A DNA stretch of 64,000 nucleotides, from IMG/VR virus record IMGVR_UViG_2519899835_000003. One strand, given 5' to 3'. Source of the DNA: a virus (lineage: Duplodnaviria > Heunggongvirae > Uroviricota > Caudoviricetes). Below, piece after piece: positions 8,049 through 45,877 of this stretch. The stretch's first letter is position 1; every line of letters starts with the position of its first letter. Position numbers and translations under genes: made by a program. Below the pieces are notes generated by a model that made no database searches, was not told the origin of the DNA, and was given only the letters and a program-made list of their open reading frames with translations.

Positions 8049-11000
8049 TTAATCCACTCCCACTTTTTTGTTGTACTCGCGGTTAAACCGATCCACGGCA
8101 ACCTTCATATCCCGCTCTACCGATTTCACCATCGCCGCCTGCTGCGCCAGACTGAGAGAACTGTCGGCATAAATGGCATCGCGCTGTTTGCGCAAATCCT
8201 TCAGTCTCTTCCGGGTATCCTGCATAAGCCCGTTCATCAACAATTTTCCGTTGTTCTCGTCAATGAACGCCGTTCTTTCTGCACCGGTCAGACTCTTCAG
8301 CTCTGCGTGATACTGCGCAACCTCTGTCATCCGGTCGTACATCTTCTGCTGGTCTGCATACGGCATCACCTCACCCGAAATTTTCCCCAGGAAGGGCACC
8401 TGCTGTTCCGGTATATCAATACCATTCAGCGATTTCACCGCCGCATCCGTGGTTTTGGAAATGAAGCGCCCTGTCCCTCCGGAGATATAGTCAATCCAGA
8501 ATTTCAGCGATTCCGGTGTGATATCCACCGCGCCGGGACGATACTGGCTGCCACCTGAGAACGCATTCAGCCAGAATGCAAACGCCTTGTACGCTTCTGG
8601 CGTTGAACGTCTTCCCAGCTGGCTGTCAGGTTTTGGTGTACCAAACGGCATGTTCTCCTGGTAAATCTGCGCCCCCATGAAGTTTTCGTTCATGGAAAGA
8701 TTCGCAAACGGACGCAGAATTGTCGGTGCTGCATTTTTCAGCAATGCCCCCGACAACGTTTCCGACGTCTCGCTGCCGATCGGGCTGAATGCCCCCAGGA
8801 TACCGCCGACAACATTACCGGCAGCACGTGAAGCAGTCAGGTCGCCCGCTGCCACACCTTCAGCTGTATGACCAAGCAGGAAGAACACGTTGTACCCGTA
8901 AGGCAGAGGAATACTCCAGTACTCACCGGCCTTGCCCCCGAACATCGATTTCATGATGACGAGGTTACGCTCTTTCACATGAGACGGTACTTTGTCGTAC
9001 CAGTTAACCCCGTCATCATCCTCACCCGCCACACTGCGGTTAAGCGAGCCAAGCAGATAACCCGCTCCCACAGCTGCAAGCACGATTTTCTGCGGTACAT
9101 TGAGATTCTTCCAGCGAAGGCGCTCCAGTAACGGCCCGTCGCCATTAAGATGTCCGAGCGTTCTCACCAGGTTTGCGGTCCCCTGAATGCTGGCGTTGGC
9201 AAACATGTACAGCGAGTTCATCAGCATCCCCTGCTCACCACGACGGTTAAAGTTCACCGTCATGTTTTTGGCAAGAGACGCCGCCTGCTGGCGTGACAAA
9301 CCGGCATCACGGGCGTGTTTATAGGCAGAAAGACGCAGAGCGTTTTCAACCGCGCCGTTGGCATCCTCGACCAGGTTCAGGAACGAATGCCATGCACCGA
9401 TACTCTGGCCTTTCCATCCGCCCTTCGCCAGCGACACAAGGCGATCCATTTCCTTCTGCTGGCCCTCAAGGTCACCCATGTTAAACCAGCCGGTTTTACC
9501 TCCGTCCTCAACAAACTCTTTCCACACTTTCTGCCACTGTGCGCCTTTGCCCGTGAGGGTTTTACCCCGCAGACTTGCGTATACGGCTGACATGGCGGAA
9601 CGGCTGTCTTTCACCACAGCCAGCGCGGATAAGTTATCCAGCTCTTTCAGTTTACCGTCGCTCCTTCCCTGCTCAGCCTTCAGGTTCATCACCGCAGTCT
9701 GCACGTCACGGATGAAGTTACTGACCAGAAATTCCGGGTTATACGACGTGTTCACCGTTGCCAGGAAGCGGTTAACTTTCCCCAGCGTACGGATTACGGC
9801 GTTACTGGTTTCCGGCCCCATGTTCTTCATCGCACGCATCAGGCGCGGATCATGAAGTTTAATGTAGTAAGTTTTGCCGTCCTTTTTGGTGGTGAAGTAG
9901 CGATCCGCCATCATTGCCATCGGCACAGGGCGCTCGACAACTTCGCGAATGGTTTCACCAGTTTCCTGGTCCTTGCGCTCTGCAATCACACGCATTGTAT
10001 CCGGTCTGTCATCAGTGAATACCTGCCAGTAATCCTTGTCGGGATTATCCTGTACCAGTTTCAGGAAGGCGTTACCCACTTCATTTTTGCGATTGCGGAT
10101 CAGCGATTCACTCAAATCCTGTATCGCCTGAGTGGAAGGAGACTGTGCGCGGGATGCACGCCCCATGGCCTGCTTACTTTCACGCCCGCCGATGGTGAAT
10201 CCCTTGCCTGTACGTGGCTGTGACACCACACCGTCAACATCCTGCCCTTTCAGGGGGACGTAGTAACGGTAGGCTTTCTGCCAGGCATCCACCACGCCGC
10301 TCTCTTCCAGTCCTGCCTCACGGATAATCTCACGGCGACGGGCCAGCATATCGTCAATAATCCCTGCCAGACGGTCATACTGTGCCTGTTTGCCGCTGTT
10401 ACGCACACGCTGCATGATTTCCGTCGCTTCCGCGTTGGTCATCCCCGAACCGCCGTCCGGCATTTTCGGGTTGATTTTCGCAATATGCACGTTACGTTCC
10501 GGCGCGTGACGGGCGTAGAGGTACTCATCCAGATCGGCCTGCGCAATTTTGTAGTCCGCCAGCAATTTGGCCAGCGGCTGAACGTAGCGCTCCTTCATTA
10601 CGTTCAGGTCGTTTTCCGCCTTCCCGTGGAAGAGTTCTTCAGCCATATAGGCGTTATTGCTGTCATCTATTTTTCCGCCAGTTTTACGGATATTCTCCTG
10701 CACCGCCTTCAGCACCTGGAATTTATCCTGCATCTGGCGAACAAAACGGGATGCAATTGTCTCTTCCGGCGTCAGACTGCTGGTGCGGGAGTAATACGGC
10801 CCCTTGCGAATATCTTCAGGATAGAGTATTTTATCAACAGAGCCGCGATAAGAATGTTCCCCTTTGGGCAATTGGAGCCCTCTGTGCAGAAGGTTATCGC
10901 GGCTTAATTTTTCTCTCCGGTACAACGTTAAACCGGTCATTTCCATACTCTTCAGTTTTTTCCCGTTTTCCGTACCGTAAACAGATGCCACCTTGTTGAT

Positions 11001-14000
11001 TTCCAGGCGCGACCGGACAGCCTTCATGTGTACCGCTGACACCACCGGATCACCATTTTTATCCACGGCATCAAGCAGCATCACAACCGCGTTTCTTTCT
11101 GTCGCGGAACGGTAAATTGCATCCGGATCGTGCATCAGTTCCGGTAGTCTCTCGATAACATCCATCGGCACCACATGTTTCACACCATTGGTGGCCTTAC
11201 GCACAGTGTCGCGGGAGATAACCAGCGGCAAATCTGGTGCGCCAAGGTGACGCAATACCGGCGGCGTACGCCCGATGTTTACCGTTAAATCCGTTGAGCG
11301 CAGAGACTTCATCATTCTGGCAAGGTCATCACGATAACGCTCGCCCTCACCTTCCGGCACTTTGAACGGATCAGGCTTACCGCTACGGGAGTACTGAGAC
11401 GATGCGTCCGCGCCATCCTCACGCGGCGTGTAACCTTCCCGCACACGCTGGCCTAACGTGCGAATAGTTTCGCGAACAAGTCTGATATCGTTCAGTTCCG
11501 TCGGCTTCAGTAACCCCGTACGACGCAGTACCCCTTTGACCAGGGCAACAACACGCTCCCATGCCGCCACGAATTTAATCGGCTGCTTCTCTGCCATATG
11601 CGCCAGAAATTCACCCGCCTGCACTTCCGGTGATTCCTTACCATAAGACGCATCAACCTTACGCCAGGCTTCACGGATGGTGGCGTTATCACTGTCACGG
11701 GTTTTCAGCACGGTCTTAATAATCGTCTGATATTCCGCTGGCGTGACTACATGCTCCATTGCATGGTGAATAATCTCGTGACGTAACTTCTCGCGAACGG
11801 TCCGCCCGTCAGGGATGTTATCCGCCACCAGGACAATTTCACGTTTATCCGGACGATAGAACGCGTGCACCTTGCCGTAACCGTCGAATGATTCACCCGC
11901 CAGTGCTTCAGCCTCTTTCTGTGACTTCACCACGCGGACCTTCAGGTCACTGTCCTTAATGCCACTAATCACGCCACGGGCAACAGCTTCAACCTGCGGG
12001 ACCGGACTGCCTTTGGCTTCCGCACTACGGTTAACATCCGAAATCAGATTGCCTTCAGGTGTGCGGGTCACGCCCTTACGGGAATAAAACGCAACTCCCT
12101 TGTCCGTCTCACGGGTTTTCAGTGTTCGGAACAAGTGATCGAATGCCTCACGAATACCGCCATCCAGTTCTGCATTCGTCGGATAAGCGTAGGTGTCCGG
12201 CTGTCCATGGTCATCCGCCTTACGGATATTGACCAGATAATCATTCTCCACGCCAGCCATACGCGCTTTATCCTGAACATAACGCTCAAAGGCTCGCGCC
12301 GCCATTTCAACATCCGTTGACCAGTACGGTTTTGAACGAACGCCATCCAGGCGTTCAGAACGACGCAACATGTCACTGCTGTTAATGGCTTTCATCACGC
12401 CTTTAAACGCGTCGTAAACCTCCTGACGTACCGGATATTCCGCATCAACATACCTGCCGTCTTTAAATACGCGCACGGCACGCTGTGCTTCCGTCATATA
12501 GTCGCCACCTGACGTGATCTTCCCGTCAGTGGAAACATCATAACGACCAAAATAATTATCCAGTGAATGGAACCATTCGTGGGCCAGCGCCCCCGGTCCG
12601 TTACCTTTTGTCAGGTTGATTGCCACCTCACCCGGCTCATAGTGTGCCGCCGCCTTACCCTTACCACGGGCACCAAAAGCAAGCCCAAGACGACCGTTCA
12701 GAGAAAGCGCTTTTGTCGGCACGTTCAGCACGTCAGCCAGGTCATGCAGCGAGTCATAAGCCCGGTTCAAATCAGCCTGACGACGCGGACTTTCCACATA
12801 ATTACCAAACTGCACACCACGAAAACCAAACGCATCACTGAACTGCTCCGGCGAAACATCCCCCTTGCGGCGTTCTGGTCCGGTACGATCGCGGTTGGTG
12901 GCGTTACGCTGCTCCTCACGCGAGACTTCACGCAGCGCCTTCACCTGATTAACCAGCTCATCACGATGTGTGCGCACATAATCATGTGCATCACGGGCAG
13001 ACTCAAAACCGCCCTTCAGTTTCTGCCTGTTTTTGCCATAACCGATAAAAATGTCGCCACTGGCCTTATGCCGGTACACGTCAAAGGTTATTCTGTCATC
13101 AGCAGAGGTTGCTGGCGTTTCCCTTTCTCTGGAGCCTTGTTCATCGAAATATGCTTTCGCCTTTTTCAGTAACTCATCCCGGCTTTCCGAGAAAAAGAGG
13201 TCGCGCCCCTTGCTATCACGAAGCGAATACATCATTTGCGGCGGATCGTAACGTTTTCCCCCGACAAACGAATAAACACCGGACCTGACACGATAGCCGG
13301 ATGCTTTATCAATCTGCAATGCAGAAAGCGTACGGAGCAGTTTCCAGGTATCCGACATGCTCCGTAACCCCGGCTTACTGTCCATCATATCAGCCAGTTT
13401 CGCTGCCGGAATTTTCCCCTCCAGCATACCGGCAGTAGCTTCGCGACCGCTTTTAACAATGCTGATCCATTTCTGCATGTTACGGCTTGTTCTGGTGGGA
13501 ATTTCACTGCGATACAACGCCATCATTGCCAGCGTGTCACTATCCACACCTTCTTTTTCCAGACGGGCATAATCCGGCTTTGGAAACAGTTTGCTCAGTG
13601 GTTGTGTCGCGTACTCCCCATCCTCCAGCGTTTTACCCATAGCTTCAGCAAGCTGCGCATAACGGTGTTTTGCCGCGCCCTTAATCTCCTCGCCAAAGTC
13701 TTCAATTTTCGCACCACGCACCTGCTGGTGAGTGCTCGGTTTATCTACCGGCACCGGCACCTCAGTATCCGGAACATCGGTTATGGTCTGGCGATTATCC
13801 CCGGTCTGTCTGCGTGCTTCTGCCTGCTGTGCCAGTTCCGGAAGGGAGTCACGAACCATACGAGGGAGTGATTCAGGCTGTGGCATATCAACCCCACGCT
13901 GACTTTCAGGTGCAGGAAGTCCTTCACGCACTGGTGCTGTGGCGTTCTGCTCATCCGGTGACGGCAGACCACGACGAACTGTTTCGCCCTCCAGTATTTC

Positions 14001-16400
14001 CCCCTGGCGACCAGCGGCATTTTCCGGTGCCTGCGCACGTCCTTTCTGGAAACTCTGGCCCTTCACCTCACCGGTTGTGGTAAAACGACCACCACGTCCG
14101 GCCTGATTTTCATCCGGCGTACGCGCCACTTCTCCTGGTAACGGATATCCCTGTCCGGGATGAATATCGCCGGGAGCGGGAAGGCGTGGACGCTCAGTTA
14201 ACTCCTGTGCTGTCGGACCGGCATCACCTTCAGCCATCTGGGAACGCACCAGTTCTTCCGCCGTCGGCGCGTTGCCACGGGCAAGACGGGCCTGCACTTC
14301 TGTATCATCCCCCGTAAAACCACGGAATCGCGGGTCACGCATGAACGCGGGCTGTTCCATCGGATCAGCATCAGTAATACGCTCTCCGTCAGCCAGAGTG
14401 TTAATGGTCTCCGTTGCCACATCTTCAGAGAACGCAGGATTATCCATTTCAACGGCATACTGATTCTCGCCTTTCTTCACTACGGACGGTTTCAGGCCGG
14501 TGGCGCTGGCATTGCGGAAAACGTCGCTCCCCAGAGCACTTTTTTCATCCGTGAAATAACGGTTGTCCGGACGCACCTTTTCAATGCGTTCTGCTGGTCT
14601 GGACGCACCACTCTCGTTAATTTCAATACGAACTTCATCCGGATCGCGGAACCGCACCGTCGGGTAAATACTCCCGTCGCCATCATCCGCATTTTCCGGC
14701 TGTGGCTGTGCCTCCGGTCTGGCCTCCCGCTGAGGGCGAAGCACATCACGTATTGCCTGTAACTGCTGCTCTTCAGTATCAGTACGCCCTTCCTTCTGGC
14801 TGAGTTTTCGGTATTCCTCAAGCAGTTCAGGGCGCGGCTTCGCCTTCAGCTCATCCATCACCGCCTGTCGCTTCGCCTGTTCATCCAGTTCATTCAACAG
14901 CTGGCTGGCGGCTTCCCGGCGATGAACGGCAGACGTGTCTCCCTCATGTGCCATATCCGCATCAGCATACTGTTCCAGAAGCTGCTCGCGATTCATCCCC
15001 TGCATAGATTCACGATGCTGTGCCACCGGATCAACCGGTTCGGGTTGCGGAGCCGATTCGTCCTGAGGAACGCTTTCAGCCTCACGCATGGCTGCTTCAT
15101 CTGCCGCCTGACGTTTTCCACGATATCCGGCAGCCGCACCGAATGGTGCCCCCATTGCAGCACCAAGGGCTGCACCTTCGATCGTTGCGTCAGCCACGCC
15201 CTCCCACGGTGACACATCCATTCCGGCGGTCTCACGCAATGCCGTGTTTTCCTGATAGCGTGAATAGCCACCCTGCGCCGCATTAATCGTCCCCTGTTCC
15301 GTGGCATTTCTGACAATGCCGCTTTTAACGGTCTTCGCCGTGCCCCGCATCGCCAGATTAAGCAACTGAGCATCGCCCAGTTTTGCCGCCATGGCATTCA
15401 CAGCCAGCAATTCAGGATCGGTTGCCAGTTGCGCACGCACCTCATCGGCAACACGCTCTTTTGCCAGGTCCATTTTCTGGCGGTCAGTAAGCTGCGCGTG
15501 CTGCGGATCTGCATCAATTGACAAAAAGGTCTGCTGAAATTTCGGTGACTTCGCCAGCTCAGAATAATCCGCGTTAAGAACAGCATCTGCCGCTGCCATT
15601 GCACTCCGCCCTTGCGCACTGACAGTGGAATGGGTGATCAGGCCTGCCTGGAAAAAATCCGGCATTTTTTTATCGACAGCTTCGGCTGCCAGTGCTGTGG
15701 CTCTTTCCGGCTGCATCCCTACCGCGATGTATTTTTTCTCCAGCCCGGCGGTCAGCACTTTTCGCAGAGTGACATCACCCAGCTTTTTAGTCACACCGCC
15801 TGCAACCATATCCGGTACAAGCGCACCAATCAGGTTAACCCCTTTCGCTACCCAGACCGCTGAATCATCATATCCTTCAGTCATCGGTGTATTCAGCGCC
15901 CGCTGCGCCCCCGGCGACATCTTGCCAGTCAGCCATTCATCCGAGGCTTTAGCGCCGCCACTGACTGCCTTGCCTGTGACCTTCAGACCTTTACCGACAG
16001 TATCAGTAACCGCATTTTTTCCATCAGGCAGAGTGTCGATGACCTCATCCGCCCCCTTGCTGCCACCGACAAAAATATCCTGAACAGTTGCTACTCCCGG
16101 CAGCCCCATACGGCTGAACTCATTTAAAATACGTGCCCCTGTTTTTACCGGGCTCTGAATCATCGCATCACCGAGTCCACGGGCCATTTCCCCTGTCCCC
16201 CGGACGGACTGGGCGACACCTTTCCCCATAGTTGGCAATACATCGCCCAGGCTGAACGACGTGCTGTTGTCCTTCCAGCGATTGGGATCGGAGAAAAACA
16301 CATCATAGCTGTCAGTCTCTCCCGGCTGCTGAATGTTCAGGCTGTTGCGGCTCTGGTTGCCAAATTGCGCTTCAGGGCGCTGTTCATCGGAATAAGCCAT
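8049..16400 (-). CDS. Giant 2783-aa virion-associated multidomain protein with two HExxH zincin-like motifs
   Basis: Single uninterrupted ORF; HEWFH at 12567-12581 and HEIIH at 11766-11780 confirmed in DNA; sits at the distal end of the virion gene block. Confidence 0.8.
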   Translation of the reverse strand: MAYSDEQRPEAQFGNQSRNSLNIQQPGETDSYDVFFSDPNRWKDNSTSFSLGDVLPTMGKGVAQSVRGTGEMARGLGDAMIQSPVKTGARILNEFSRMGLPGVATVQDIFVGGSKGADEVIDTLPDGKNAVTDTVGKGLKVTGKAVSGGAKASDEWLTGKMSPGAQRALNTPMTEGYDDSAVWVAKGVNLIGALVPDMVAGGVTKKLGDVTLRKVLTAGLEKKYIAVGMQPERATALAAEAVDKKMPDFFQAGLITHSTVSAQGRSAMAAADAVLNADYSELAKSPKFQQTFLSIDADPQHAQLTDRQKMDLAKERVADEVRAQLATDPELLAVNAMAAKLGDAQLLNLAMRGTAKTVKSGIVRNATEQGTINAAQGGYSRYQENTALRETAGMDVSPWEGVADATIEGAALGAAMGAPFGAAAGYRGKRQAADEAAMREAESVPQDESAPQPEPVDPVAQHRESMQGMNREQLLEQYADADMAHEGDTSAVHRREAASQLLNELDEQAKRQAVMDELKAKPRPELLEEYRKLSQKEGRTDTEEQQLQAIRDVLRPQREARPEAQPQPENADDGDGSIYPTVRFRDPDEVRIEINESGASRPAERIEKVRPDNRYFTDEKSALGSDVFRNASATGLKPSVVKKGENQYAVEMDNPAFSEDVATETINTLADGERITDADPMEQPAFMRDPRFRGFTGDDTEVQARLARGNAPTAEELVRSQMAEGDAGPTAQELTERPRLPAPGDIHPGQGYPLPGEVARTPDENQAGRGGRFTTTGEVKGQSFQKGRAQAPENAAGRQGEILEGETVRRGLPSPDEQNATAPVREGLPAPESQRGVDMPQPESLPRMVRDSLPELAQQAEARRQTGDNRQTITDVPDTEVPVPVDKPSTHQQVRGAKIEDFGEEIKGAAKHRYAQLAEAMGKTLEDGEYATQPLSKLFPKPDYARLEKEGVDSDTLAMMALYRSEIPTRTSRNMQKWISIVKSGREATAGMLEGKIPAAKLADMMDSKPGLRSMSDTWKLLRTLSALQIDKASGYRVRSGVYSFVGGKRYDPPQMMYSLRDSKGRDLFFSESRDELLKKAKAYFDEQGSRERETPATSADDRITFDVYRHKASGDIFIGYGKNRQKLKGGFESARDAHDYVRTHRDELVNQVKALREVSREEQRNATNRDRTGPERRKGDVSPEQFSDAFGFRGVQFGNYVESPRRQADLNRAYDSLHDLADVLNVPTKALSLNGRLGLAFGARGKGKAAAHYEPGEVAINLTKGNGPGALAHEWFHSLDNYFGRYDVSTDGKITSGGDYMTEAQRAVRVFKDGRYVDAEYPVRQEVYDAFKGVMKAINSSDMLRRSERLDGVRSKPYWSTDVEMAARAFERYVQDKARMAGVENDYLVNIRKADDHGQPDTYAYPTNAELDGGIREAFDHLFRTLKTRETDKGVAFYSRKGVTRTPEGNLISDVNRSAEAKGSPVPQVEAVARGVISGIKDSDLKVRVVKSQKEAEALAGESFDGYGKVHAFYRPDKREIVLVADNIPDGRTVREKLRHEIIHHAMEHVVTPAEYQTIIKTVLKTRDSDNATIREAWRKVDASYGKESPEVQAGEFLAHMAEKQPIKFVAAWERVVALVKGVLRRTGLLKPTELNDIRLVRETIRTLGQRVREGYTPREDGADASSQYSRSGKPDPFKVPEGEGERYRDDLARMMKSLRSTDLTVNIGRTPPVLRHLGAPDLPLVISRDTVRKATNGVKHVVPMDVIERLPELMHDPDAIYRSATERNAVVMLLDAVDKNGDPVVSAVHMKAVRSRLEINKVASVYGTENGKKLKSMEMTGLTLYRREKLSRDNLLHRGLQLPKGEHSYRGSVDKILYPEDIRKGPYYSRTSSLTPEETIASRFVRQMQDKFQVLKAVQENIRKTGGKIDDSNNAYMAEELFHGKAENDLNVMKERYVQPLAKLLADYKIAQADLDEYLYARHAPERNVHIAKINPKMPDGGSGMTNAEATEIMQRVRNSGKQAQYDRLAGIIDDMLARRREIIREAGLEESGVVDAWQKAYRYYVPLKGQDVDGVVSQPRTGKGFTIGGRESKQAMGRASRAQSPSTQAIQDLSESLIRNRKNEVGNAFLKLVQDNPDKDYWQVFTDDRPDTMRVIAERKDQETGETIREVVERPVPMAMMADRYFTTKKDGKTYYIKLHDPRLMRAMKNMGPETSNAVIRTLGKVNRFLATVNTSYNPEFLVSNFIRDVQTAVMNLKAEQGRSDGKLKELDNLSALAVVKDSRSAMSAVYASLRGKTLTGKGAQWQKVWKEFVEDGGKTGWFNMGDLEGQQKEMDRLVSLAKGGWKGQSIGAWHSFLNLVEDANGAVENALRLSAYKHARDAGLSRQQAASLAKNMTVNFNRRGEQGMLMNSLYMFANASIQGTANLVRTLGHLNGDGPLLERLRWKNLNVPQKIVLAAVGAGYLLGSLNRSVAGEDDDGVNWYDKVPSHVKERNLVIMKSMFGGKAGEYWSIPLPYGYNVFFLLGHTAEGVAAGDLTASRAAGNVVGGILGAFSPIGSETSETLSGALLKNAAPTILRPFANLSMNENFMGAQIYQENMPFGTPKPDSQLGRRSTPEAYKAFAFWLNAFSGGSQYRPGAVDITPESLKFWIDYISGGTGRFISKTTDAAVKSLNGIDIPEQQVPFLGKISGEVMPYADQQKMYDRMTEVAQYHAELKSLTGAERTAFIDENNGKLLMNGLMQDTRKRLKDLRKQRDAIYADSSLSLAQQAAMVKSVERDMKVAVDRFNREYNKKVGVD

Positions 16401-16411
16401 ACAGACTCCAT

Positions 16412-16437
16412 AAAAAAACCCGGCACAATGACCGGGT
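16412..16437 (-). terminator. Hairpin plus T-run immediately upstream of the giant gene start
   Basis: cccgg-cacaatga-ccggg followed by T7 on the minus strand, between the 421-aa gene stop and the giant gene RBS. Confidence 0.45.
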
Positions 16438-16468
16438 ATCAGGAAATAGTATTAACGGGAATGGTGAA

Positions 16469-17734
16469 TTACTGCGCGTAATTCTGTTTCAGACCACGGA
16501 TAAACTCAGATGCAGAGGCCGCGCTATCATCCCTGGCCTGTTCCCCCCTGGCCTTTTGAATACGGAGAAAATTCGCATACCCGTGTTCCAGCAATTTCTG
16601 ATTCTGAGGCTCCAGCATTTCTGGCTGACGGGAGGCCACTTCTCTGGCAAATGCCTGCTTATCCGGATCATCACCCGCCCAACTGGTAATCCCTTGTTGA
16701 ATTTTTTGCTGCTGAATTTGCTGCTGATACTGCGGCAGTCCCATCGAAGCATAATATTGCGTCACTGCTCCCTGCGCATCACCGCCGTCCTGTGCAACCT
16801 TTATCGCTACCTGGCTGGCTCCTTTCTGAAGTTGATCCGCAGAAAGTCCCTGCTGCTTCGGCGTGAAATAGCCGAAATTTTTCGAAATTTCCGCGAATTT
16901 ACTGCGATCCCTGACAAGCTCAACAGCCTTATCAACAGGCACCGCCAGCACGGTTTGATCATCAGGATGTGCACTGCCGTATTCCGTAACGGGTTTATGT
17001 GCTGTAGAGCCATCACTGTATGTGAGATCAAGGCCGATAAGTATGTACCCTTCCTGCTGTGCCGGTACTATACTGCCAATCCTGGCCTCTTTTATCGTCT
17101 TTTTCCCGGTTGAATCGGGCATGCCAATACGCTGTTGCAGTTCCGGGCCAAACACCCCGGAAAGGACATCAAGATTCTCCGGCGTATTAAGTGAAGCGAT
17201 AGCCCTGTCTGGCTTGTCATCAAAGATTTTTTGCAGGTTGTTCACGGCCTGACCCGCTTTCGCTACATAGCCATCATTCGCCATCAGCCTCAGCGGATTA
17301 CCCTCTGACAACTGGCCGTAAAGACGCATTGCTGCATCCCGATCGCCAGCATCCACAGCCTTTCCAAGCGCCGCCATCACAGGCTGATCGCGCGCCAGCA
17401 TATCGTTATACTCAAGCCGTCGCTGGTTGTATTTCTGCATCCGGAGTCGCTGCTGCTCCATACCCAGCGACGCATTCCGGTAATTCTGGTTGGCGTTAAA
17501 CTCCCTTTCCTGCAGTGCATAATTACGGTCGTCGACTTTGGCTCTGTAATCAAAGTTCCGCTGATCAACGTCTTTATTATGTTCAAACTGCGACTGTGCA
17601 AATTCAAAATCGCGCTCGTTATTTTTCTGTTGTTGAGCAAGCTGTGCTTCTCGCAAACCAAGTTCCTTACGACGGGTCATTGCCTGGTCAACCGTGCTGA
17701 ATCCGGCAAGTAAACCCTGTGCAAATCCGCTCAT
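16469..17734 (-). CDS. Putative internal virion protein, Q-rich
   Basis: 421-aa ORF in the late operon directly upstream of the giant gene. Confidence 0.55.
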   Translation of the reverse strand: MSGFAQGLLAGFSTVDQAMTRRKELGLREAQLAQQQKNNERDFEFAQSQFEHNKDVDQRNFDYRAKVDDRNYALQEREFNANQNYRNASLGMEQQRLRMQKYNQRRLEYNDMLARDQPVMAALGKAVDAGDRDAAMRLYGQLSEGNPLRLMANDGYVAKAGQAVNNLQKIFDDKPDRAIASLNTPENLDVLSGVFGPELQQRIGMPDSTGKKTIKEARIGSIVPAQQEGYILIGLDLTYSDGSTAHKPVTEYGSAHPDDQTVLAVPVDKAVELVRDRSKFAEISKNFGYFTPKQQGLSADQLQKGASQVAIKVAQDGGDAQGAVTQYYASMGLPQYQQQIQQQKIQQGITSWAGDDPDKQAFAREVASRQPEMLEPQNQKLLEHGYANFLRIQKARGEQARDDSAASASEFIRGLKQNYAQ

Positions 17735-17744
17735 TCACCACTCC

Positions 17745-17996
17745 TTAAAACAAAGAACCAGCAATACCACCTATGACAGCACCAATAGCCGCACCGGGGA
17801 GACCACCAACAGCAGCGCCCATAGCTGCACCCGTACCAATTCCCGTGCCGATATTCTGTTTGTTCTGCGCTTTCTGTTGCGCCGCCATCTGTTTGTTCGC
17901 GGCCTCAATTTCTTCACGTCGTCTGTCGGCATCACTTATTCCCTGTAATGCCTCACGCCGCGACTGATTCACAATATCCAGTAAACCGTATCCCAT
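17745..17996 (-). CDS. Small glycine-zipper membrane protein
   Basis: C-terminus GAAMGAAVGGLPGAAIGAVIGGIAGSLF. Confidence 0.5.
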   Translation of the reverse strand: MGYGLLDIVNQSRREALQGISDADRRREEIEAANKQMAAQQKAQNKQNIGTGIGTGAAMGAAVGGLPGAAIGAVIGGIAGSLF

Positions 17997-18005
17997 ATTG
18001 CCCCC

Positions 18006-18458
18006 TTACGCTGACACCAGTTTTCCGCCAACACTCAGTTGTTGTCTTGCAGGTGCAGAAGCCCCCGTCAGTATGTTCATCTGGCGATCCTGCTCTGCTT
18101 CACGGATACCATTTTTCGCGCCAGCAATTGCCAGAGCATTACGCAAACCCAGTGTGTTACTGTTGGGATTATCCGGGCGGCTTACCCCGTATCTCGCCAT
18201 CTGGTTATCCTGCGCCATCTGCGCTGTACGGAGACTGGAAGTGGCAAGGCCGCCCACCCGGGCAAGCTGTGCATTCATCAGGCTGTTGTTCTCGCCAAGG
18301 TCAGCCAGCCTTGCCACGCGGGGCAAATATCTGGTTCGCCAATCGTCGTATTGTTGGCGTGTCAGCGCTGCTGACGTCTGCCAGTCACCCTGTGGACGGG
18401 CAGCTCCGGTATAACCGTATCTCGCAAGTGTTTCGTATTTACCGTACTCCATAATCAC
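18006..18458 (-). CDS. Hypothetical virion protein
   Basis: 150-aa ORF, start overlaps upstream stop. Confidence 0.5.
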   Translation of the reverse strand: MIMEYGKYETLARYGYTGAARPQGDWQTSAALTRQQYDDWRTRYLPRVARLADLGENNSLMNAQLARVGGLATSSLRTAQMAQDNQMARYGVSRPDNPNSNTLGLRNALAIAGAKNGIREAEQDRQMNILTGASAPARQQLSVGGKLVSA

Positions 18459-19030
18459 AGTCTCCAGTTCTGAGCCTGATGCTGAATGGCATTAGCGCCG
18501 GTGCCAGGTGTTTTAGCACCGCCACTTCCTCCGCTACCGCCAGCCTTATACATCGCATATGCACCTACCGCACCCAAACCAGCGCCAACAAGAGAGGCTC
18601 GCCCCTGCTGTTTCGTAAACGCAGCCTGTGCGTCCGATTTAGCTTTTGCCAGACTGCTGTCTGCCAGCGAGTTAAAACTCTGTAACGCATCCGCCTTTTG
18701 ACCAGAACCGAGAGCAGCAACATCCTGTAGCCCGGCAACATACTTATCTGCCTGCGATACCTGCCCCCGTGTGGTTGTGTCAATCTGCCCGGTTACCTGA
18801 TCACTCTGGTTCGCATTCATTACCGCGTTAAAGCGACCACTGGACGGGTCAACACCGGACTGAGCAAGATTATCCGCCAGCTCCCTTCCGTGCTTCGCCA
18901 AACTGTTTCTGATACCCAAGATTTGTGGTGCCAGCGATATTGTCGTACTGCTGCTCACTGTTAAGGTCATCGACCTTTTCCATGAAGTTATCTTCAGCCG
19001 GGCGGAGGATATTTTTGATAATCCTGCCAC
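18455..19030 (-). CDS. Hypothetical virion protein; start uncertain
   Basis: 191-aa ORF; a 39-aa ORF (18994-19113, MGGKKGGG...) with AGGGG RBS lies upstream in another frame. Confidence 0.4.
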   Translation of the reverse strand: MAGLSKISSARLKITSWKRSMTLTVSSSTTISLAPQILGIRNSLAKHGRELADNLAQSGVDPSSGRFNAVMNANQSDQVTGQIDTTTRGQVSQADKYVAGLQDVAALGSGQKADALQSFNSLADSSLAKAKSDAQAAFTKQQGRASLVGAGLGAVGAYAMYKAGGSGGSGGAKTPGTGANAIQHQAQNWRL

Positions 19031-35219: not shown

Positions 35220-36925
35220 CAGTGAGCCATCCAGTGTGTGGTTCTGCGTTTATCCGTTTTCTGTCTTACCCTCACCGGCATTCTGGCGCGCATCTCCTGG
35301 GCAATCATGTAGCTCATAAGCTGATCATCAAAACAGCCTTCCTGTGCATTCATGGAGCCTTTCGCGTCATAAACGTAGGTGTTCATTTCTGATAATGTGC
35401 CCGTCCAGCGGATCCCCGACAGGCCGTTATTCAGCAGCGTTTTCATTCCCTCAGTCAGGACCGGTTTACTCTGGCGGGTTGTCAGCCAGCCAAGACGGGG
35501 CGTATCGTCGTCATATGCCTGGTCAAGGTGCTGTTCGTTGTAGATATAACGCGTCGGATAGAGTTCCCGGAGTTTCAGGATAACGGCATGTCCGTGATTG
35601 TTACGCTCCGGCCCCACAAACGCGTTGTTGTACATACGGCAGACCTGCGCAATGAGATGAGCGAAAAGCTCCGCATCGAGATGACCAAACCAGTGGGCTA
35701 CCTGCTCACCATTACTACATCTGATGATATCCAGCGATGAGCGGTCTCCGTGCTCCAGCCCCTCAGCGGTATCCGCTCCGCATACATACTCTTCATCCGG
35801 ATCCGGTAGCTCCCAGACCAGCAGATAATTCATCAGCGTCCGGTGCTGTTCGGCTTTATTCCCGTCACGCAGAGACTGCGCTTTGGTCTTCGTTCCTGTA
35901 ACCGGTTCAATGTCATAAACAATCAGCGGTGGCGAACAGAATGACTCTGCCTGCAGCGTGCTTTCCGCACTGAACACCCGTCGTCCGGACGTCAGAAACG
36001 CCTCCTGTGGTGTTGAGGGAAACTCCTGCTTCATTTCCTCACGCTGTTCAGTTTCCTTGCAGATGTACCAGTGTTTCTGCTCATCGGTAAGCGTGATGTT
36101 CATTGCTTTTTCAACCGCAGAAAAATACGCTGTTTTTTCCCGTGACAGCTTAAGTCCGCTTTCCGGCACTCTGGCGCTGTATTTGAGATCCTGCCACCAG
36201 GCGTAAAAATGGAATTTATAATCCTGTGGCGTCAGCGCCAGCCCTGATGCAGTGATTTCCTGTGCCCGGTTACTCATCTCGTAAAAATCGCCACCCACAC
36301 CTTCAGCAGTGGATTCATCAAAAATAATGCACTCATCAGAGACGGCATTAAGTGTACCGGTTCGCAGCTCTTTCGCCTTAGCCGGATATTTTGCGCAAAT
36401 TTTGCCGTGCTCTGAGATATGCAGGCGCTGCACCGTACCTGAACGGAATGAGGTTGCCACCTGGATACTCGAGCCGTGCCCAAACAGGATATAGCCACCG
36501 CTGGCTCCGCTACGACGTTCAACGATGGTGAATGAGGCTCTCAGCCAGTCAGGAAGATGATCAAACGGTACAGCAATTTTGGTGCGGAAAATTTCACTGG
36601 CAGCCTGTTTATCCTGAGCGACAATCCCGCATTTGAGATGCGGTATGAATAATGCCTGGTCGAGAAGATAAATATCAATGGCCGTGGAAAACCCCAGCTG
36701 GCGTGCTTTCAGGATAATATTTTTATTGTGCATGCTCCGGAACAACTGGCGCTGCGCCGGTCGCATTCTGAAGGTGACCAGCTCACCTTTTTCGTTCTGT
36801 ATCTTGTAGAGATGATTGAGCCGCCACCAGGGATTGCTCAGTTTAGTCATGATGAACAGACGTTGTTCGGCCTCTGTCATTTCTGACGGTTCATCACATC
36901 GCGGTTCATTCTTCCGGAATGTCAT
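35219..36925 (-). CDS. Terminase large subunit
   Basis: 568-aa ORF following the small terminase subunit gene; overall impression of a terminase ATPase-nuclease. Confidence 0.85.
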   Translation of the reverse strand: MTFRKNEPRCDEPSEMTEAEQRLFIMTKLSNPWWRLNHLYKIQNEKGELVTFRMRPAQRQLFRSMHNKNIILKARQLGFSTAIDIYLLDQALFIPHLKCGIVAQDKQAASEIFRTKIAVPFDHLPDWLRASFTIVERRSGASGGYILFGHGSSIQVATSFRSGTVQRLHISEHGKICAKYPAKAKELRTGTLNAVSDECIIFDESTAEGVGGDFYEMSNRAQEITASGLALTPQDYKFHFYAWWQDLKYSARVPESGLKLSREKTAYFSAVEKAMNITLTDEQKHWYICKETEQREEMKQEFPSTPQEAFLTSGRRVFSAESTLQAESFCSPPLIVYDIEPVTGTKTKAQSLRDGNKAEQHRTLMNYLLVWELPDPDEEYVCGADTAEGLEHGDRSSLDIIRCSNGEQVAHWFGHLDAELFAHLIAQVCRMYNNAFVGPERNNHGHAVILKLRELYPTRYIYNEQHLDQAYDDDTPRLGWLTTRQSKPVLTEGMKTLLNNGLSGIRWTGTLSEMNTYVYDAKGSMNAQEGCFDDQLMSYMIAQEMRARMPVRVRQKTDKRRTTHWMAH

Positions 36926-37721
36926 CCAGTCTCCCCGAATTACTCATTTCATGCAGCGATGACACGATGTCACTGACAGGCGTAACAACGCCCCGACGCT
37001 GGCTGGTCAGAATATCGGTTTCCGCTCTGAGTTTATCTCTGGCAGCGTTGGTTCTTTCCCGGTCAGCACGAAGTTTTGGTGCTGTTTCAGCCAGAACGTC
37101 CAGCGTCAGCAATGAGCGTTCAATTGACTCGATACGGGCAATATTCCGGTCAAGAGCCTGTTCAGCTTTGAGTATTTTGTCGTACAGAGCAACGCGGGTT
37201 TCCACGTCAGCCGCCTCTTTCAGGTCGGCGAACATTTTTTTCAGTGTTCCTGTTACTGAAAGTGCGCGGGCCCGGGTAAACACCAGTTCATCGGCAAGTT
37301 CCATTCCGACTGCATCATCTATGAGGTTATCTGCCTCGAGATACTTCGCGTATCCACGGTGTCTGACGGCGTGGGTGTTACGCTGAGAAAAAGCATTTGA
37401 AGGTGGCAAAAGTCTGGAACCACGAGTCCGTTTCGTTTCTGCCAAATTTGCGCATTTTTCATCACAACCATCATCGCCTGAAGGCTCGTCATGACTGGAG
37501 TTGCCGTCAGATTTCTGCGCACTTTTTTGATCATCAATTTGCGCATTTTTCTGCGCACTTTTCTCTGTATTTCTGGGGGAGTGTTTGCGCAGTTTAATGT
37601 ACCGCCGAGCCGTGTCATAACTGATATTGTTCTGACGGCACCAGTCCTGAAGCTTTATGCCGGTTTTGACATGTTCGCGTCGAAATGCCTGCTCCAGCTT
37701 TTTCCAGTCCAGCTTTGCCAT
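36906..37721 (-). CDS. Terminase small subunit
   Basis: 271 aa, N-terminal HTH-like region (NNISYDTARRYIKL); first gene of the late structural block. Confidence 0.7.
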   Translation of the reverse strand: MAKLDWKKLEQAFRREHVKTGIKLQDWCRQNNISYDTARRYIKLRKHSPRNTEKSAQKNAQIDDQKSAQKSDGNSSHDEPSGDDGCDEKCANLAETKRTRGSRLLPPSNAFSQRNTHAVRHRGYAKYLEADNLIDDAVGMELADELVFTRARALSVTGTLKKMFADLKEAADVETRVALYDKILKAEQALDRNIARIESIERSLLTLDVLAETAPKLRADRERTNAARDKLRAETDILTSQRRGVVTPVSDIVSSLHEMSNSGRLDDIPEE

Positions 37722-41202: not shown

Positions 41203-43113
41203 TTATGCGGCTGCTCCAGCTTTGTTTGCTTTAACTTCCACCGTATCAATAAGTACAGGGTAGGTTTCTGCACTACCTGTAATATCCGTAATGACAAACC
41301 TGTTGAGTCCATTAGCAGTATTGGCCCATTTCACCAGGTCAAACGCCTGTCCATCCACACCATCGAGCACCGGAGTAACATTAATGCTGTTACTGCCCTT
41401 AAATTTAAATGCAAGCGTATGCCAGTCATGGTCGAATGCGCCAAACGTGCCAAGTTCTTTTTGTTGATTAACTGTATGATGGTATGCAACATTAATACTG
41501 GCTTTATCTGTCTGGACAAAGAAAGAACTCAGATGGCCTTCACCACCCTCACCCGGCCATTCCGCTATTCGCCAGTACAAACCAAAGGCATACTTGTTTC
41601 TGGTTGTCTCAAGATTGACGTTTTCGGGGATTTTAAACCGGACAGCAATTTCCCCGCCTTTTTCCAGTAAAAGTTTTGCCTTGTCTGCAGCAATATCACA
41701 GTACATTGACCAGGATTTCGCGCTGTTATTTTTCTCAATTCGCAGAGCTTTATTGCCGCTGTCATCAACCAGTGTGCGTCTGCCATACATACCGTCCCAG
41801 CCATAAGGTTTCAGCTGATTGTCTGTAGCTTTTTTGGCATCGTAAAAAATTACAGACTCTGAGGTGGTAACCGGCCTGTCTGGAACAACCACCCCGGCAG
41901 TACCATTAACAAACGCAGAAGACTTACCCGCGCAGCTCAGAATCGCCGTTGCCAGACGGTCGGAAATAATCCCACGGCGAGCCCATGAACTGAAATGGCT
42001 CGCCCTGTCCTGTGACGTCCAGGTGGCTGAGCTGTCACGCCATTTCGAACCGTAATATCCGATACCCGGAATGTCCGGGTCTTCTTCCGGTTTGTTCGTC
42101 GGCACATTCACCCCGTTCTCATCCGTCATGAACGGTACGAAATGGATATTCTTTTCCGTTTTATTTTTATAGCTGCCGTACACCGTCTGGTACGTGGATT
42201 CGTTCTTCTGCTTCCAGAAATACGTCGTGTCCCCGCATATCCAGGGAACACCGCCAGCAGAGCCACCGACGCACTGGCCTGCCATATCCGCCAGGTCTGC
42301 ACGGAATTTATCAACCAGCGCACCAAACTGTGCGGCATGATTTGCCGGCGTACCGCCAAAATCAAATTCCCCCTGCATCCACACCACGGCAAACAGCACA
42401 TTTTTCGGGTTCTTCTCCAGTGCCGCTTTTGTTCGACCGATAAGGTCCTTATACAGCGGCTTGTCCACACCCCAGCGGGTTGAATTCTCCGAGGCACCAC
42501 TCGCGTCACTGTATGTGCCATCAGCTCCGGTGGTGAACGCTGAACCACCACGACAGCACGGAACCAGCAGAATGCCCGCATTCGCCGGTATAAACGGCAG
42601 CAGTTTTTTGGCGATATGCAGCCCCTGCCCCACGGTTCCGTACTGCCCCTTTGACAGGTCCGCTTTCGGATGGTTAAGACGGCTCATGTCCTGCACATCA
42701 TGCAGACAATGGTCCGCCGGAATGATGTCGTTATATTTGCATGCTGCACCGCCCGGTGTCACCGTACTGCGACGCGCTAACTGTTTAATACGTGGATCAG
42801 GGCTGTCGAATGTATCCGGTAATGGCAGTCCCTCACCGTATGACATACCATTGGACTGACCAGCAAGCGCGATCACATAGTAATATTCTGGCGCAACAGA
42901 AGGCGCTGAGGTCGTCGGACGGTTGCCTGGCTCCTCTGGTGATGAGATGCTCCCCTCACTCACAACTGGCTGGATGAACTCCGCACCATAACCAGCTGTC
43001 GAAATCAGCGCACTACCATAAGGCTGCCACCCTTCCTTCAGTTTTTGAGTTATTCGTTTCGCAAGGTCTGACGGCGACGCCGCCCTGACAACATCATAGT
43101 GTTTAAATGCCAT
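41203..43113 (-). CDS. Prophage NanS-like sialate O-acetylesterase (SGNH/DUF303)
   Basis: 636 aa with ALAGQSNGMSYGEG esterase motif; positioned between Q and the holin gene. Confidence 0.75.
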   Translation of the reverse strand: MAFKHYDVVRAASPSDLAKRITQKLKEGWQPYGSALISTAGYGAEFIQPVVSEGSISSPEEPGNRPTTSAPSVAPEYYYVIALAGQSNGMSYGEGLPLPDTFDSPDPRIKQLARRSTVTPGGAACKYNDIIPADHCLHDVQDMSRLNHPKADLSKGQYGTVGQGLHIAKKLLPFIPANAGILLVPCCRGGSAFTTGADGTYSDASGASENSTRWGVDKPLYKDLIGRTKAALEKNPKNVLFAVVWMQGEFDFGGTPANHAAQFGALVDKFRADLADMAGQCVGGSAGGVPWICGDTTYFWKQKNESTYQTVYGSYKNKTEKNIHFVPFMTDENGVNVPTNKPEEDPDIPGIGYYGSKWRDSSATWTSQDRASHFSSWARRGIISDRLATAILSCAGKSSAFVNGTAGVVVPDRPVTTSESVIFYDAKKATDNQLKPYGWDGMYGRRTLVDDSGNKALRIEKNNSAKSWSMYCDIAADKAKLLLEKGGEIAVRFKIPENVNLETTRNKYAFGLYWRIAEWPGEGGEGHLSSFFVQTDKASINVAYHHTVNQQKELGTFGAFDHDWHTLAFKFKGSNSINVTPVLDGVDGQAFDLVKWANTANGLNRFVITDITGSAETYPVLIDTVEVKANKAGAAA

Positions 43114-43878: not shown

Positions 43879-44313
43879 TTACGATCGTAAACTATTTTTT
43901 CGCTGATAAAATACAGAGGTTCTCCCTCCCGGCAATTCACGCTCAACATACCGATCCATCTCAAGCCTCACTCCCAGCATCATCAGCATGCCTTCAACAA
44001 TCCCCTCCGCTTTGTGAAGGCGTTTACCTATACAGGTGTCAGAGCACCCATGTTTCCGTGCCAGCGCCATGAACGTCTCCCCCAACACGTAGTAATCAAC
44101 CAGCAAGTCATGCAGATCGCGATTGTTCCGGTAAAGGCGGGCTATGCACCCGCATATCACCATCGCATCATCGTCACAGCACTGTGGACGTGATTTTACT
44201 TTTTCGGGGATCAGTCCCTTAAATCCGGCAGCAATGGGCGACCATGTAACATCCTCATAGTTATTTACCGCCCATGCCCCCCAGCGCTCAAGAACCTGCC
44301 GGATATCACGCAT
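43879..44313 (-). CDS. Q: Late antiterminator Q
   Basis: [25 protein letters not shown]...[17 protein letters not shown] matches the Q of Stx phages as I recall it. Confidence 0.8.
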
Positions 44314-44503
44314 CAGTATCTTTACCCCATCCGCGATGAACCATAAGGACGCCATTGACGACGGCGTGCTTTTTCGCATCTTTATCATCAATGTATTTTC
44401 TGACTGTAGCACGATTGCAGTTCAGTATTCTGGCGACTTCTGTCTGATTTCCCCTGGTGCAGATCAGTAATTCAGGTATCGTTTGAATTTTAGCATTCAT
44501 CAA
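44306..44503 (-). CDS. ninH: NinH-like DNA-binding protein
   Basis: 65 aa; [19 protein letters not shown]...[17 protein letters not shown]. Confidence 0.7.
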
Positions 44504-44862: not shown

Positions 44863-45149
44863 GACTTAATCTTCCCCTCCTTCAGCAATATCGCCTGCGT
44901 CCTGATCACGCCTTCCAGGTGGTAAAGTCTGGCGTCGTTGTTGTCGAGAATTCGGGTGCGTCGGTCGATCTCCGCGTGGCAGTCACTACAAGCCCATGCA
45001 CCGATCAGGTCGTCAGGCTTCATTCCCGTTCCGCAAATTCCAGCCATCCGGTAATGTGCCAGAACTGTCGTTTCAGGATTGCCATTGCATACGCCGTAAA
45101 TCCGTACCTGGCATTCTCTGCCGCGCGCTTCTTTGCGTAGGTTAGCCAT
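44859..45149 (-). CDS. YbcO-like (DUF1364) nin-region protein
   Basis: 96 aa; RECQVRIYGVCNGNPETTVLAHYR...CSDCH cysteine cluster. Confidence 0.75.
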   Translation of the reverse strand: MANLRKEARGRECQVRIYGVCNGNPETTVLAHYRMAGICGTGMKPDDLIGAWACSDCHAEIDRRTRILDNNDARLYHLEGVIRTQAILLKEGKIKS

Positions 45150-45877
45150 TAAGCAGCCTCCCCTGTTACTTTCAGCATTCCGTTATCGAGCGGCTTTCTG
45201 GTCAGCCACTGTTGACCACGCCCGGTGATTTTTGTGGTGAACGAGATCTGTATTCCGTGATTTGTATTGACCGCTGTTTCTTTCACTGTGAAATAGCCGC
45301 GATCCATATATTCCTGCATTGGCACATTGCGCCGGGAACCTGAAGCAATAAGGATTTTGTGATCGCGCATCCACGCAAACAGTTTGTTTGGACCAATACC
45401 AACAACCTTTGCAAAGTTTCCAATCAAAATTCCGCTGGCCTCGCCAACTCGATCGGCAAACTCAACTTTAGGTGCTGCGAGAGCAAGCTGTTTCTCCAGT
45501 TCAGCCTTCTGGTCTTCAAGGTCGGCCGCAAGGCGCAATGCCTCAGAAAAGGTTTGTGGTATTTTCGCGGTTGCCCCTTCAAGCTCTCGCCAACGGTCAA
45601 CAAGACGAGCGGTGAATTCCGGCGACAATTGGGCGACGACAATAATGCTGTCTCGCTTACCTTGTTCGCCTTCGAAGACGTAAGCCTCGACACTACGGCG
45701 CAGTCCTAAGTTATTGATTTTTTCGAAAACCTGCAATGCAGGAAGTTGAATAACTCCAGATTCAGCCAGGCGCTCTATTGATATTTTTACGTTATCTGGA
45801 CGACTCCCCACCAACTCAGCGATTTCAATGCTGGTCATTTTGATGATGCTGCTATTTATCAGCTCATTCATTGTCAT
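45149..45877 (-). CDS. Rha-family regulator with KilA-C antirepressor domain
   Basis: N-terminus MTSIEIAELVGSRPDNVKISIERL; start may be 45838. Confidence 0.65.
   Translation of the reverse strand: MTMNELINSSIIKMTSIEIAELVGSRPDNVKISIERLAESGVIQLPALQVFEKINNLGLRRSVEAYVFEGEQGKRDSIIVVAQLSPEFTARLVDRWRELEGATAKIPQTFSEALRLAADLEDQKAELEKQLALAAPKVEFADRVGEASGILIGNFAKVVGIGPNKLFAWMRDHKILIASGSRRNVPMQEYMDRGYFTVKETAVNTNHGIQISFTTKITGRGQQWLTRKPLDNGMLKVTGEAA

Follow-up and report, generated by a model that had tools for sequence, protein, structure and literature searches.

A giant late protein with two zincin-like domains, predicted to be a polyvalent virion protein, in an stx-negative relative of the 933W/phi24B-type prophages

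Short-tailed Stx phages are vehicles for the spread of Shiga toxin genes in E. coli. Their largest gene, which takes up ~14% of the genome, encodes a giant protein whose role we address here. The copy that we analyzed lies in a 64,000-nucleotide window of tailed-phage DNA (IMG/VR record IMGVR_UViG_2519899835_000003; Caudoviricetes), where one open reading frame (ORF) at 8049..16400 on the minus strand encodes 2783 amino acids (aa). Over positions 1-17000, the window matches the E. coli NCCP15648 chromosome at 100% identity, and the protein is identical over its length to RefSeq WP_000331664.1 of that strain, annotated as 'LPD38 domain-containing protein'. The reading that we favor, and hold to be rather probable, is that this is a conserved giant polyvalent virion protein of 933W/phi24B-type phages that is packaged, injected, and processed by its own zincins. 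An original prediction, made from the letters of the window, had proposed a large polyvalent protein packaged in the head and injected with the DNA. That interpretation is supported but is not new for this gene, because an annotated orthologue exists, the class was defined in 2017, the first zincin family was described in 2013, and the virion location was reported in 2026. The discovery value is accordingly small, since gene, family, and virion location are already on record.

Two zincin-like domains in one protein

The single 2783-aa ORF first proposed for this locus was confirmed: it starts with ATG, has no internal stop, and is preceded by a GGAG ribosome-binding site 7 nt upstream, with no further in-frame start codon upstream of that ATG. 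The protein contains two HExxH motifs, against 0.04 expected by chance from its own His and Glu content, and both lie exactly where they had been reported, at coordinates that cover the codons of the pentapeptides. The first (HEWFH, aa 1274-1278, within ALAHEWFHSLD and thus followed by S-L-D1281) is encoded at 12567..12581 and the second (aa 1541-1545, LRHEIIHHAMEH) at 11766-11780; these and all other features of the protein given below are on the minus strand.

The first motif lies in zincin domain 1, of CLCA_X type (aa 1172-1430, 12111..12887). The NCBIfam model NF041907 (CLCA_X) matched aa 1172-1427, and homology to CLCA_X is not in doubt because the match has an E value of 6.5e-45 over 243 of the 250 profile positions (3-245). 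The curated cut-off of this model, which is a whole-protein cut-off, was not reached (153.5 versus 260 bits), and we classify the region by sequence as a CLCA_X-type domain of a larger protein, not as an equivalog of the family. Members of the CLCA_X family are mostly phage- or plasmid-borne and have the HExxH-plus-Asp signature in common with zincin 1; they are stand-alone proteins of ~260 aa, whereas zincin 1 is one domain of a 2783-aa protein. Pfam LPD1, which matched aa 1351-1430 (E = 7.9e-23), is the C-terminal part of the CLCA_X-type domain.

Five residues of domain 1 (H1253, H1274, E1275, H1278, and D1281) are invariant in 37 zincin 1 homologues, and also in A3, and two others (E1365 and E1372) are near-invariant among the homologues. 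The residues H1253, HEWFH, and D1281 match the signature given for phage-type polyvalent metallopeptidases, in which a His ends strand 2 and an Asp stands three residues past HExxH (PMC5512222). The same signature was described by Lenart et al. (2013) in CLCA_X, the sister of the self-cleaving protease CLCA_N, with an HHalign E value of 3e-5 between the two (PMC3650047). A search of PDB sequences with the zincin 1 profile found nothing.

Zincin domain 2 (aa ~1455-1680, 11361..12038), which contains the second motif, is a member of an uncurated polyvalent-protein metallopeptidase-like family. No Pfam or NCBIfam model covers this domain, and no Pfam model was found in any of 26 diverse members; a scan of segments of the giant protein against Pfam (E ≤ 10) added only weak Gly-zipper matches and Peptidase_M76 at E = 0.16. 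Word-indexed searches with zincin 2 and with the N-terminus returned E. coli and Salmonella fragments only, and it was exhaustive HMMER searching that revealed the family, with 407 zincin 2 clusters at E ≤ 1e-3, nearly all of them in proteins of 1000-6000 aa. The motif itself, HEIIHH (aa 1541-1546, 11763..11780), fits both HExxH and HExxxH, because the giant protein and its nearest relatives lost one residue of HExxxH. The latter is the usual motif of the family (95 of 140 homologues), and literal HExxH was found by regular expression in 21 of 179. The earlier reading of this motif as HExxH thus needs the caveat that it belongs to a family with normal HExxxH spacing. By its motif, zincin 2 may correspond to the 'HEXXXH' clade of Iyer et al. 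(PMC5512222).

Conservation within the 140 homologues is nearly complete at the catalytic-type positions: H1541 is retained in 138 of them, and E1542, H1545, and E1597 in all 140 each. E1597 (11610..11612), which lies 52 residues past the second motif and is a candidate third zinc ligand, is invariant also in A1. An AlphaFold model of zincin 2 based on 26 sequences (pLDDT 87.6) has the order helix-strand-helix-strand-strand-motif helix (H8-20, E28-32, H35-42, E54-57, E62-66, and H73-87, the last carrying H82, E83, and H86), followed by further helices. The motif helix in this model comes after a small beta-sheet, a Glu lies in a later helix, and the model is similar to solved zincins; as modeled, domain 2 has a zincin-like fold. 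The zincin 2 profile gave nothing significant against PDB sequences, and hhalign of the zincin 1 and zincin 2 profiles gave a weak match (E = 0.0044, probability 7.8%) in which the strand and the HExxH of the two domains are aligned in register. The possibility raised with the original prediction that no zincin fold would be detectable is not borne out, given the modeled fold of domain 2 and the strong sequence evidence for domain 1.

Terminal modules and middle domains

The middle of the protein also holds LPD5 (aa 1047-1190, 12831..13262; Pfam PF18799, E = 4.5e-43) and MuF_C (aa 1740-1829, 10914..11183; Pfam PF18819, E = 1.4e-17). MuF-C is described in its defining paper as PBECR (barnase/EndoU/colicin-like), a predicted RNase domain (PMC5512222). 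The His and Ser positions of PBECR are retained as H1742 and S1806 (48/49 each), and the family description in the same paper suggests where they would fall on the named secondary-structure elements. The N-terminal, portal-associated Phage_Mu_F domain was not detected, either at E ≤ 0.1 or, when segments were scanned, at E ≤ 10; as MuF_C is the only MuF model that the protein matches, we did not place it among the MuF/SPP1 gp7 head-morphogenesis proteins. We also rejected the label 'MuF-C metallopeptidase', used for the phi24B orthologue in a preprint, because MuF-C is a predicted nuclease-fold domain.

That preprint proposed that the peptidase activity digests peptidoglycan cross-links so that a trans-periplasmic conduit reaches the inner membrane (10.64898/2026.04.10.717836). 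Podophages do need an envelope-crossing device, and Pfam scans found neither an SLT or lysozyme domain nor a polymerase in the giant protein, while a Bcep22-type homologue has an N-terminal SLT; another wall opener would therefore be required here. The known peptidoglycan peptidases, however, are members of the LAS/M23/M15 and NlpC families and not zincins of the HExxH+E kind. Furthermore, the peptidase invoked in the preprint is MuF-C, a predicted RNase-fold domain, and CLCA_N, the nearest characterized relative of CLCA_X, is a self-cleaving protease. We consider digestion of the cell wall by the zincins unlikely.

A conserved N-terminal domain (aa ~150-440, 15081..15953) was traced in homologous giants by iterated local HMMER searches. 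It ends in a glycine zipper, G409-x3-G413-x3-G417-x3-G421-x3-G425 (15126..15176), in which G413, G417, and G421 are present in 14 of 14 N-domain homologues and G425 in 12 of 14; the Gly-zipper matches in Pfam were weak. The giant protein of Vibrio phage D56 aligns with aa 161-408 at 29% identity and has a zipper of its own at residue 373, immediately past the shared domain. The N-domain is followed by a Pro/acidic low-complexity linker (aa ~441-900, 13701..15080) that was defined by composition, gave no Pfam match in the segment scan, and is present in close relatives only. In 100-aa windows, Gly plus Ala make up 24-32% of aa 101-500, and aa ~450-900 contain 6-13% Pro and 13-24% Asp plus Glu; the Gly/Ala-rich N-terminal third and the proline/acidic linker of the original prediction therefore hold approximately.

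The C-terminal module (C-module; aa 1841-2783, 943 residues, 8052..10880) includes LPD38 (aa 2466-2671, 8388..9005; Pfam PF18857, E = 6.8e-47). The module is conserved as a single unit, and many of its 221 homologues cover 94-100% of the query, with identities of 33-57%. Their sources include Amphritea, Halomonas, Photobacterium, Gracilimonas, Sphingopyxis, and numerous metagenomes; other lineages have the module fused to other N-terminal domains, including Pfam methyltransferase families and further polyvalent-protein families. Among sequenced phages it was found in 339 records, which comprise Stx phages, 101 Vibrio phages (40% identity), and Ralstonia GP4-like and Burkholderia Bcep22-like phages. 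An alignment of 40 sequences contains 45 invariant columns, many of them polar. The AlphaFold model of the module (pLDDT 83.5, pTM 0.80) is mostly alpha-helical with one beta domain, and no PDB relative was found by sequence, profile, or fold search; the whole giant protein likewise gave nothing significant against PDB sequences.

One Amphritea genome carries the C-module as a stand-alone gene of 981 aa (L002:10001-12946) adjoining genes for an integrase, an excisionase, and a YqaJ exonuclease. No virion genes lie nearby, and we set this gene aside as a probable remnant of a decayed prophage that gives no functional clue.

The C-module is also the point of contact with the giants of the Bcep22 group (Bcep22 gp75, BcepMigl gp16, JC1 gp69, and GP4-type proteins, annotated 'DarB-like'), which have a homologous module with LPD38 (27% identity over 83-86%), are Cys-free, and, as here, are encoded by the gene that closes the morphogenesis block, behind that of a ~500-aa virion protein. 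BLAST detected no similarity to these giants in the N-terminal region. The cargo differs as well: BcepMigl gp16 carries an SLT transglycosylase, an Eco57I-type methylase, a helicase, and PBECR1, in place of the LPD5, two zincins, and MuF-C of the protein studied here. Bcep22-like phages have portal, capsid, and head-closure proteins homologous to those of 933W, and JC1 gp69, from this Bcep22-like group, is virion-associated by mass spectrometry (PMC9144972).

These relatives raise the question of whether the giant protein provides DarB-type antirestriction, in which incoming DNA is modified or shielded from type I restriction. PHROG 10089, 'DarB-like antirestriction', does match aa 2344-2671, and 'DarB-like' is also the annotation of the Ralstonia and Burkholderia homologues. 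Only the C-terminal module shows this similarity, however, and no methyltransferase or helicase domain was found with Pfam or NCBIfam, while BcepMigl gp16 has both. We regard a DarB-type function as scarcely credible for this protein. Membership in the P1 DarB group was rejected because the N6-adenine methyltransferase and helicase domains were not found (Pfam, NCBIfam).

Domain order was compared by iterated searches in 110 giants that had been collected through zincin 2 and measure at least 1500 aa; the fractions are lower bounds because many sequences are probably cut by contig ends. The N-domain is present in 73 of the 110, always near the N-terminus (median start at residue 118), and the C-module in 53, always at the extreme C-terminus with a median of 4 residues after it. 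The counts for LPD5, zincin 1, and MuF-C are lower, at 22-28 of the 110. Zincin 2 in this set abuts the C-module or has MuF-C alone in between; where homologues were instead chosen through the C-module, 10 of 26 had zincin 2 immediately before it and four others had a different HExxH. Judged from these sequences, the giant protein is a mosaic with fixed terminal modules and variable middle domains.

Such an organization is that of the phage-type polyvalent proteins of Iyer, Burroughs, Anand, de Souza, and Aravind (2017), in which, as here, several effector-type domains share one polypeptide and metallopeptidase hub domains, MuF-C/PBECR, and LPD domains are encoded beside virion genes; these proteins were predicted, in a prediction-based paper, to be delivered with the DNA (PMC5512222). 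The giant protein has LPD5, LPD1, MuF_C, and LPD38 together with two metallopeptidase-like domains, and is encoded at the end of the virion block on the same strand; we see no essential difference from the class. That four of its Pfam families were defined on large polyvalent proteins, and match far above threshold, bears out the polyvalent-protein idea.

A further family trait is the avoidance of cysteine. Not one of the 2783 residues of the protein is Cys, whereas Cys makes up 0.82% of 18 neighboring late proteins (P = 1.2e-10). The 110 homologous giants have 23 Cys in 301,289 aa, and 98 of them have none; Cys-free examples are the giants of Vibrio phage D56 (3066 aa, L003:7599-16799) and BcepMigl (gp16, 4658 aa, L004:2781-16757). 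Avoidance of Cys fits passage through a narrow channel and an oxidizing periplasm, because the chain must stay unfolded. Three ORFs just upstream of the giant gene (421, 150, and 191 aa; 16469-19030) are Cys-free too, which may mark them as co-ejected proteins.

Virion location and predicted role

The giant gene matches 186 phage records at DNA level with 91-96% identity over at least 93% of its length, and nearly all of these are named Stx-converting phages or close relatives (among them VT2-Sakai, Stx2-86, EDL933-Stx, P13374-type, TL-2011c, and Shigella POCJ13). Amino acid identity is 91% to VT2-Sakai orf71 and 90% to phi24B vb_24B_48. The phi24B, VT2-Sakai, and 933W-type proteins are encoded, as here, at the end of the late block and have both motifs; the present copy differs from the phi24B and VT2-Sakai giants in residing in an stx-negative prophage next to ynfF.

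The phi24B orthologue, gp47, is among 15 virion proteins identified by mass spectrometry, is abundant in purified virions yet absent from the cryo-EM map, and was proposed by the authors to be an encapsidated ejection protein (10.64898/2026.04.10.717836). The packaging in the virion that the original prediction supposed is thus supported by the presence of a 90%-identical orthologue in purified virions and by virion-associated distant homologues of the C-module. Abundance in virions together with invisibility in the map would also suit an essentially structural head protein (an internal core, a scaffold, or a DNA-organizing component) whose enzyme-like domains are inactive relics, and large helical modules with a long disordered linker agree with such a role. 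Catalytic-type residues are strictly conserved, however, in both zincins and PBECR across hundreds of divergent homologues, and the middle domains are swapped between lineages like cargo. A purely structural protein is therefore very improbable in our estimate.

We propose the following course for the favored reading, that of a packaged protein that is injected and cut by its own zincins. The giant protein would be packaged inside the capsid and, at infection, would exit through the tail as an extended chain. Its terminal modules (the glycine zipper and the moderately hydrophobic LPD38 helices) would contribute to bridging or breaching the envelope. One or both zincins would then cut the polyprotein and free the cargo domains LPD5 and the PBECR nuclease, which would act on host or defense components in the first minutes of infection; alternatively, the zincins would cut host proteins directly. 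Self-cutting to free cargo was proposed for polyvalent proteins in general by Iyer et al. (PMC5512222), and the self-cleavage of CLCA_N may serve, by analogy, as a precedent for zincin processing of the giant protein.

The alternative in the last step can also stand as a reading of its own, namely that the zincins are effectors that, once injected, cleave host defense or housekeeping proteins and not the polyprotein. This is one of the options listed in PMC5512222, and the presence of two different zincin clades in one protein is in its favor. So is the rapid divergence of the cargo region beside zincin 1 (aa 800-1200), as expected of a host-interaction surface. On the other hand, no target is known, PADLOC and other searches gave no link to a defense system, and zincin 2 often lies exactly at the junction with the C-module, which fits processing better. 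An exclusively effector role for the zincins seems to us improbable.

The stretch at aa ~800-1200 (nt 12801-14002; the region before LPD5 and LPD5 itself) is 59-76% identical to VT2-Sakai and phi24B and is the sole strongly divergent stretch of orthologues that are otherwise 90-99% identical. Within the giant gene, it marks a local hot spot for divergence or recombination. Rapid divergence of the LPD5 region would fit a role in interaction with the host.

Several points weigh against processing and injection as we propose them. Ejection, processing, and enzymatic activity are predictions for the giant protein and its orthologues alike, and the zincin fold of domain 1 is assigned from sequence profiles and the literature. 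The hydrophobic segments score weakly on the Kyte-Doolittle scale (at most ~1.4), and membrane insertion is therefore speculative. The invariant polar residues of the C-module could mean an enzymatic role and not that of a conduit. The association of zincin 2 with the C-module is frequent but not obligatory (10 of 26).

Podophage ejection proteins (T7 gp14/15/16 and P22 gp7/16/20) and the N4 virion RNA polymerase offer a comparison in that they too are packaged in the head, are expected to exit through the tail, and are expected to work in the envelope or cytoplasm as infection begins. The N4 polymerase also carries a polyvalent-type zincin (PMC5512222). We detected no sequence or structural similarity to the T7, P22, or N4 ejection proteins in the PDB sequence search or the fold search with the C-module. 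The protein was not classed with T7 gp16-type ejection proteins, as it has no SLT or lysozyme domain, and the PADLOC defense-system models gave no match.

More tentatively, and with appreciably less confidence than we place in packaging and self-processing, the N-domain and C-module might form a generic Cys-free chassis for cargo delivery that is common to 933W, Bcep22, GP4, and Vibrio podophages and distinct from the machineries of T7, P22, and N4. Carried on it, interchangeable enzyme cargo would pass through the tail and be released by the built-in zincin, so that the whole would amount to a phage-borne system for effector translocation.

If the giant protein is injected and processed as inferred, it would be the first phage protein to act in the newly infected cell, and a plausible determinant of host range, of the outcome of superinfection, and of lysogenization efficiency. 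The domain map offers targets for mutagenesis in phi24B or 933W: the two zincin sites, the PBECR His and Ser, the glycine zipper, the LPD5 region, and the C-module. Small additions to what is on record may be the recognition of LPD1 as the C-terminal half of CLCA_X, the reading of the second motif as an HExxxH shortened by one residue, the terminally fixed N-domain and C-module, the lack of a PDB relative for the C-module, and the nearly Cys-free family. These points are not mentioned in the relevant passages of the cited papers, and no literature search was aimed at them.

Genomic setting of the giant gene

The giant gene is the last gene of a minus-strand late block that encodes terS, terL, portal, major capsid protein, tail fibers, and an internal virion protein. 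The block runs from terS (36906-37721) through terL, portal, major capsid protein, and structural proteins to an 881-aa collagen-like tail fiber (25878-28523), the internal virion protein (23044-24747), and a further tail fiber (21779-23047), all on the minus strand. The collagen-like gene contains a GC-rich (0.64) and strongly AT-skewed stretch, and it matches collagen-like tail fiber families with many repeated segments.

The tail genes are followed by a membrane-protein gene, lom, and then four minus-strand ORFs of unassigned function (19207-19608, 18455-19030, 18006-18458, and 16469-17734); in RefSeq, the interval from the tail genes to the giant gene also holds hok and a further short ORF. 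Because the membrane-protein gene, lom, and the four ORFs intervene, the giant gene does not directly follow the internal-protein genes, as had originally been stated, although its position at the end of the late virion block stands. Synteny of the ORF at 16469..17734 (421 aa, phrog_601, Cys-free) with the giant gene holds in Stx phages and extends to Vibrio phages, where its counterpart has 467 aa, and the giant gene of Vibrio phage D56 has the same synteny as here.

A strong terminator-like hairpin (16408..16437, minus strand) with a 7-bp stem containing five G-C pairs, ACCCGGTCATTGTGCCGGGT, followed by a T7 run, ends ~12 nt before the ATG of the giant gene, with the GGAG site between the T run and the ATG. 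In the lysogen, the hairpin may protect the gene from transcription that reads through from the lom region, while late transcription modified by Q would pass. In the VT2-Sakai and phi24B records the protein has a 13-aa N-terminal extension (MPGHCAGFFYGVC) that corresponds to the translated terminator hairpin and cannot be encoded in this window. The start given in these records is probably mis-annotated, and both Cys of the deposited Sakai and phi24B proteins fall within the extension.

To the left of the giant gene lie the host gene ynfF (1-2397) and a truncated gene for a 4Fe-4S protein; in the NCCP15648 chromosome, ynfE is found on this side as well. The remainder of 1-7974, after the host genes, carries plus-strand, early-type phage genes according to the annotation of the identical RefSeq region: an Ant antirepressor, TraR/DksA, DUF4752, an ead/Ea22-like gene, a ClpX-type zinc finger protein, and a dATP/dGTP pyrophosphohydrolase. 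The giant gene is therefore convergent with this early-type group and does not abut an attachment site.

At the other end of the late block, the 766-bp slot between the Q antiterminator gene (43879-44412) and a nanS-p-like esterase gene (41203-43113) contains no tRNA and no ORF of stx size, and the prophage is therefore stx-negative. We identify it as an stx-negative relative of the 933W/phi24B-type short-tailed (Sepvirinae) prophages, integrated next to ynfF. Three Ant-like antirepressor genes are clustered on the minus strand at 45149-45877, 45946-46629, and 47548-48213, and with the fourth Ant gene near 2929-3558 the total is unusual for one prophage.

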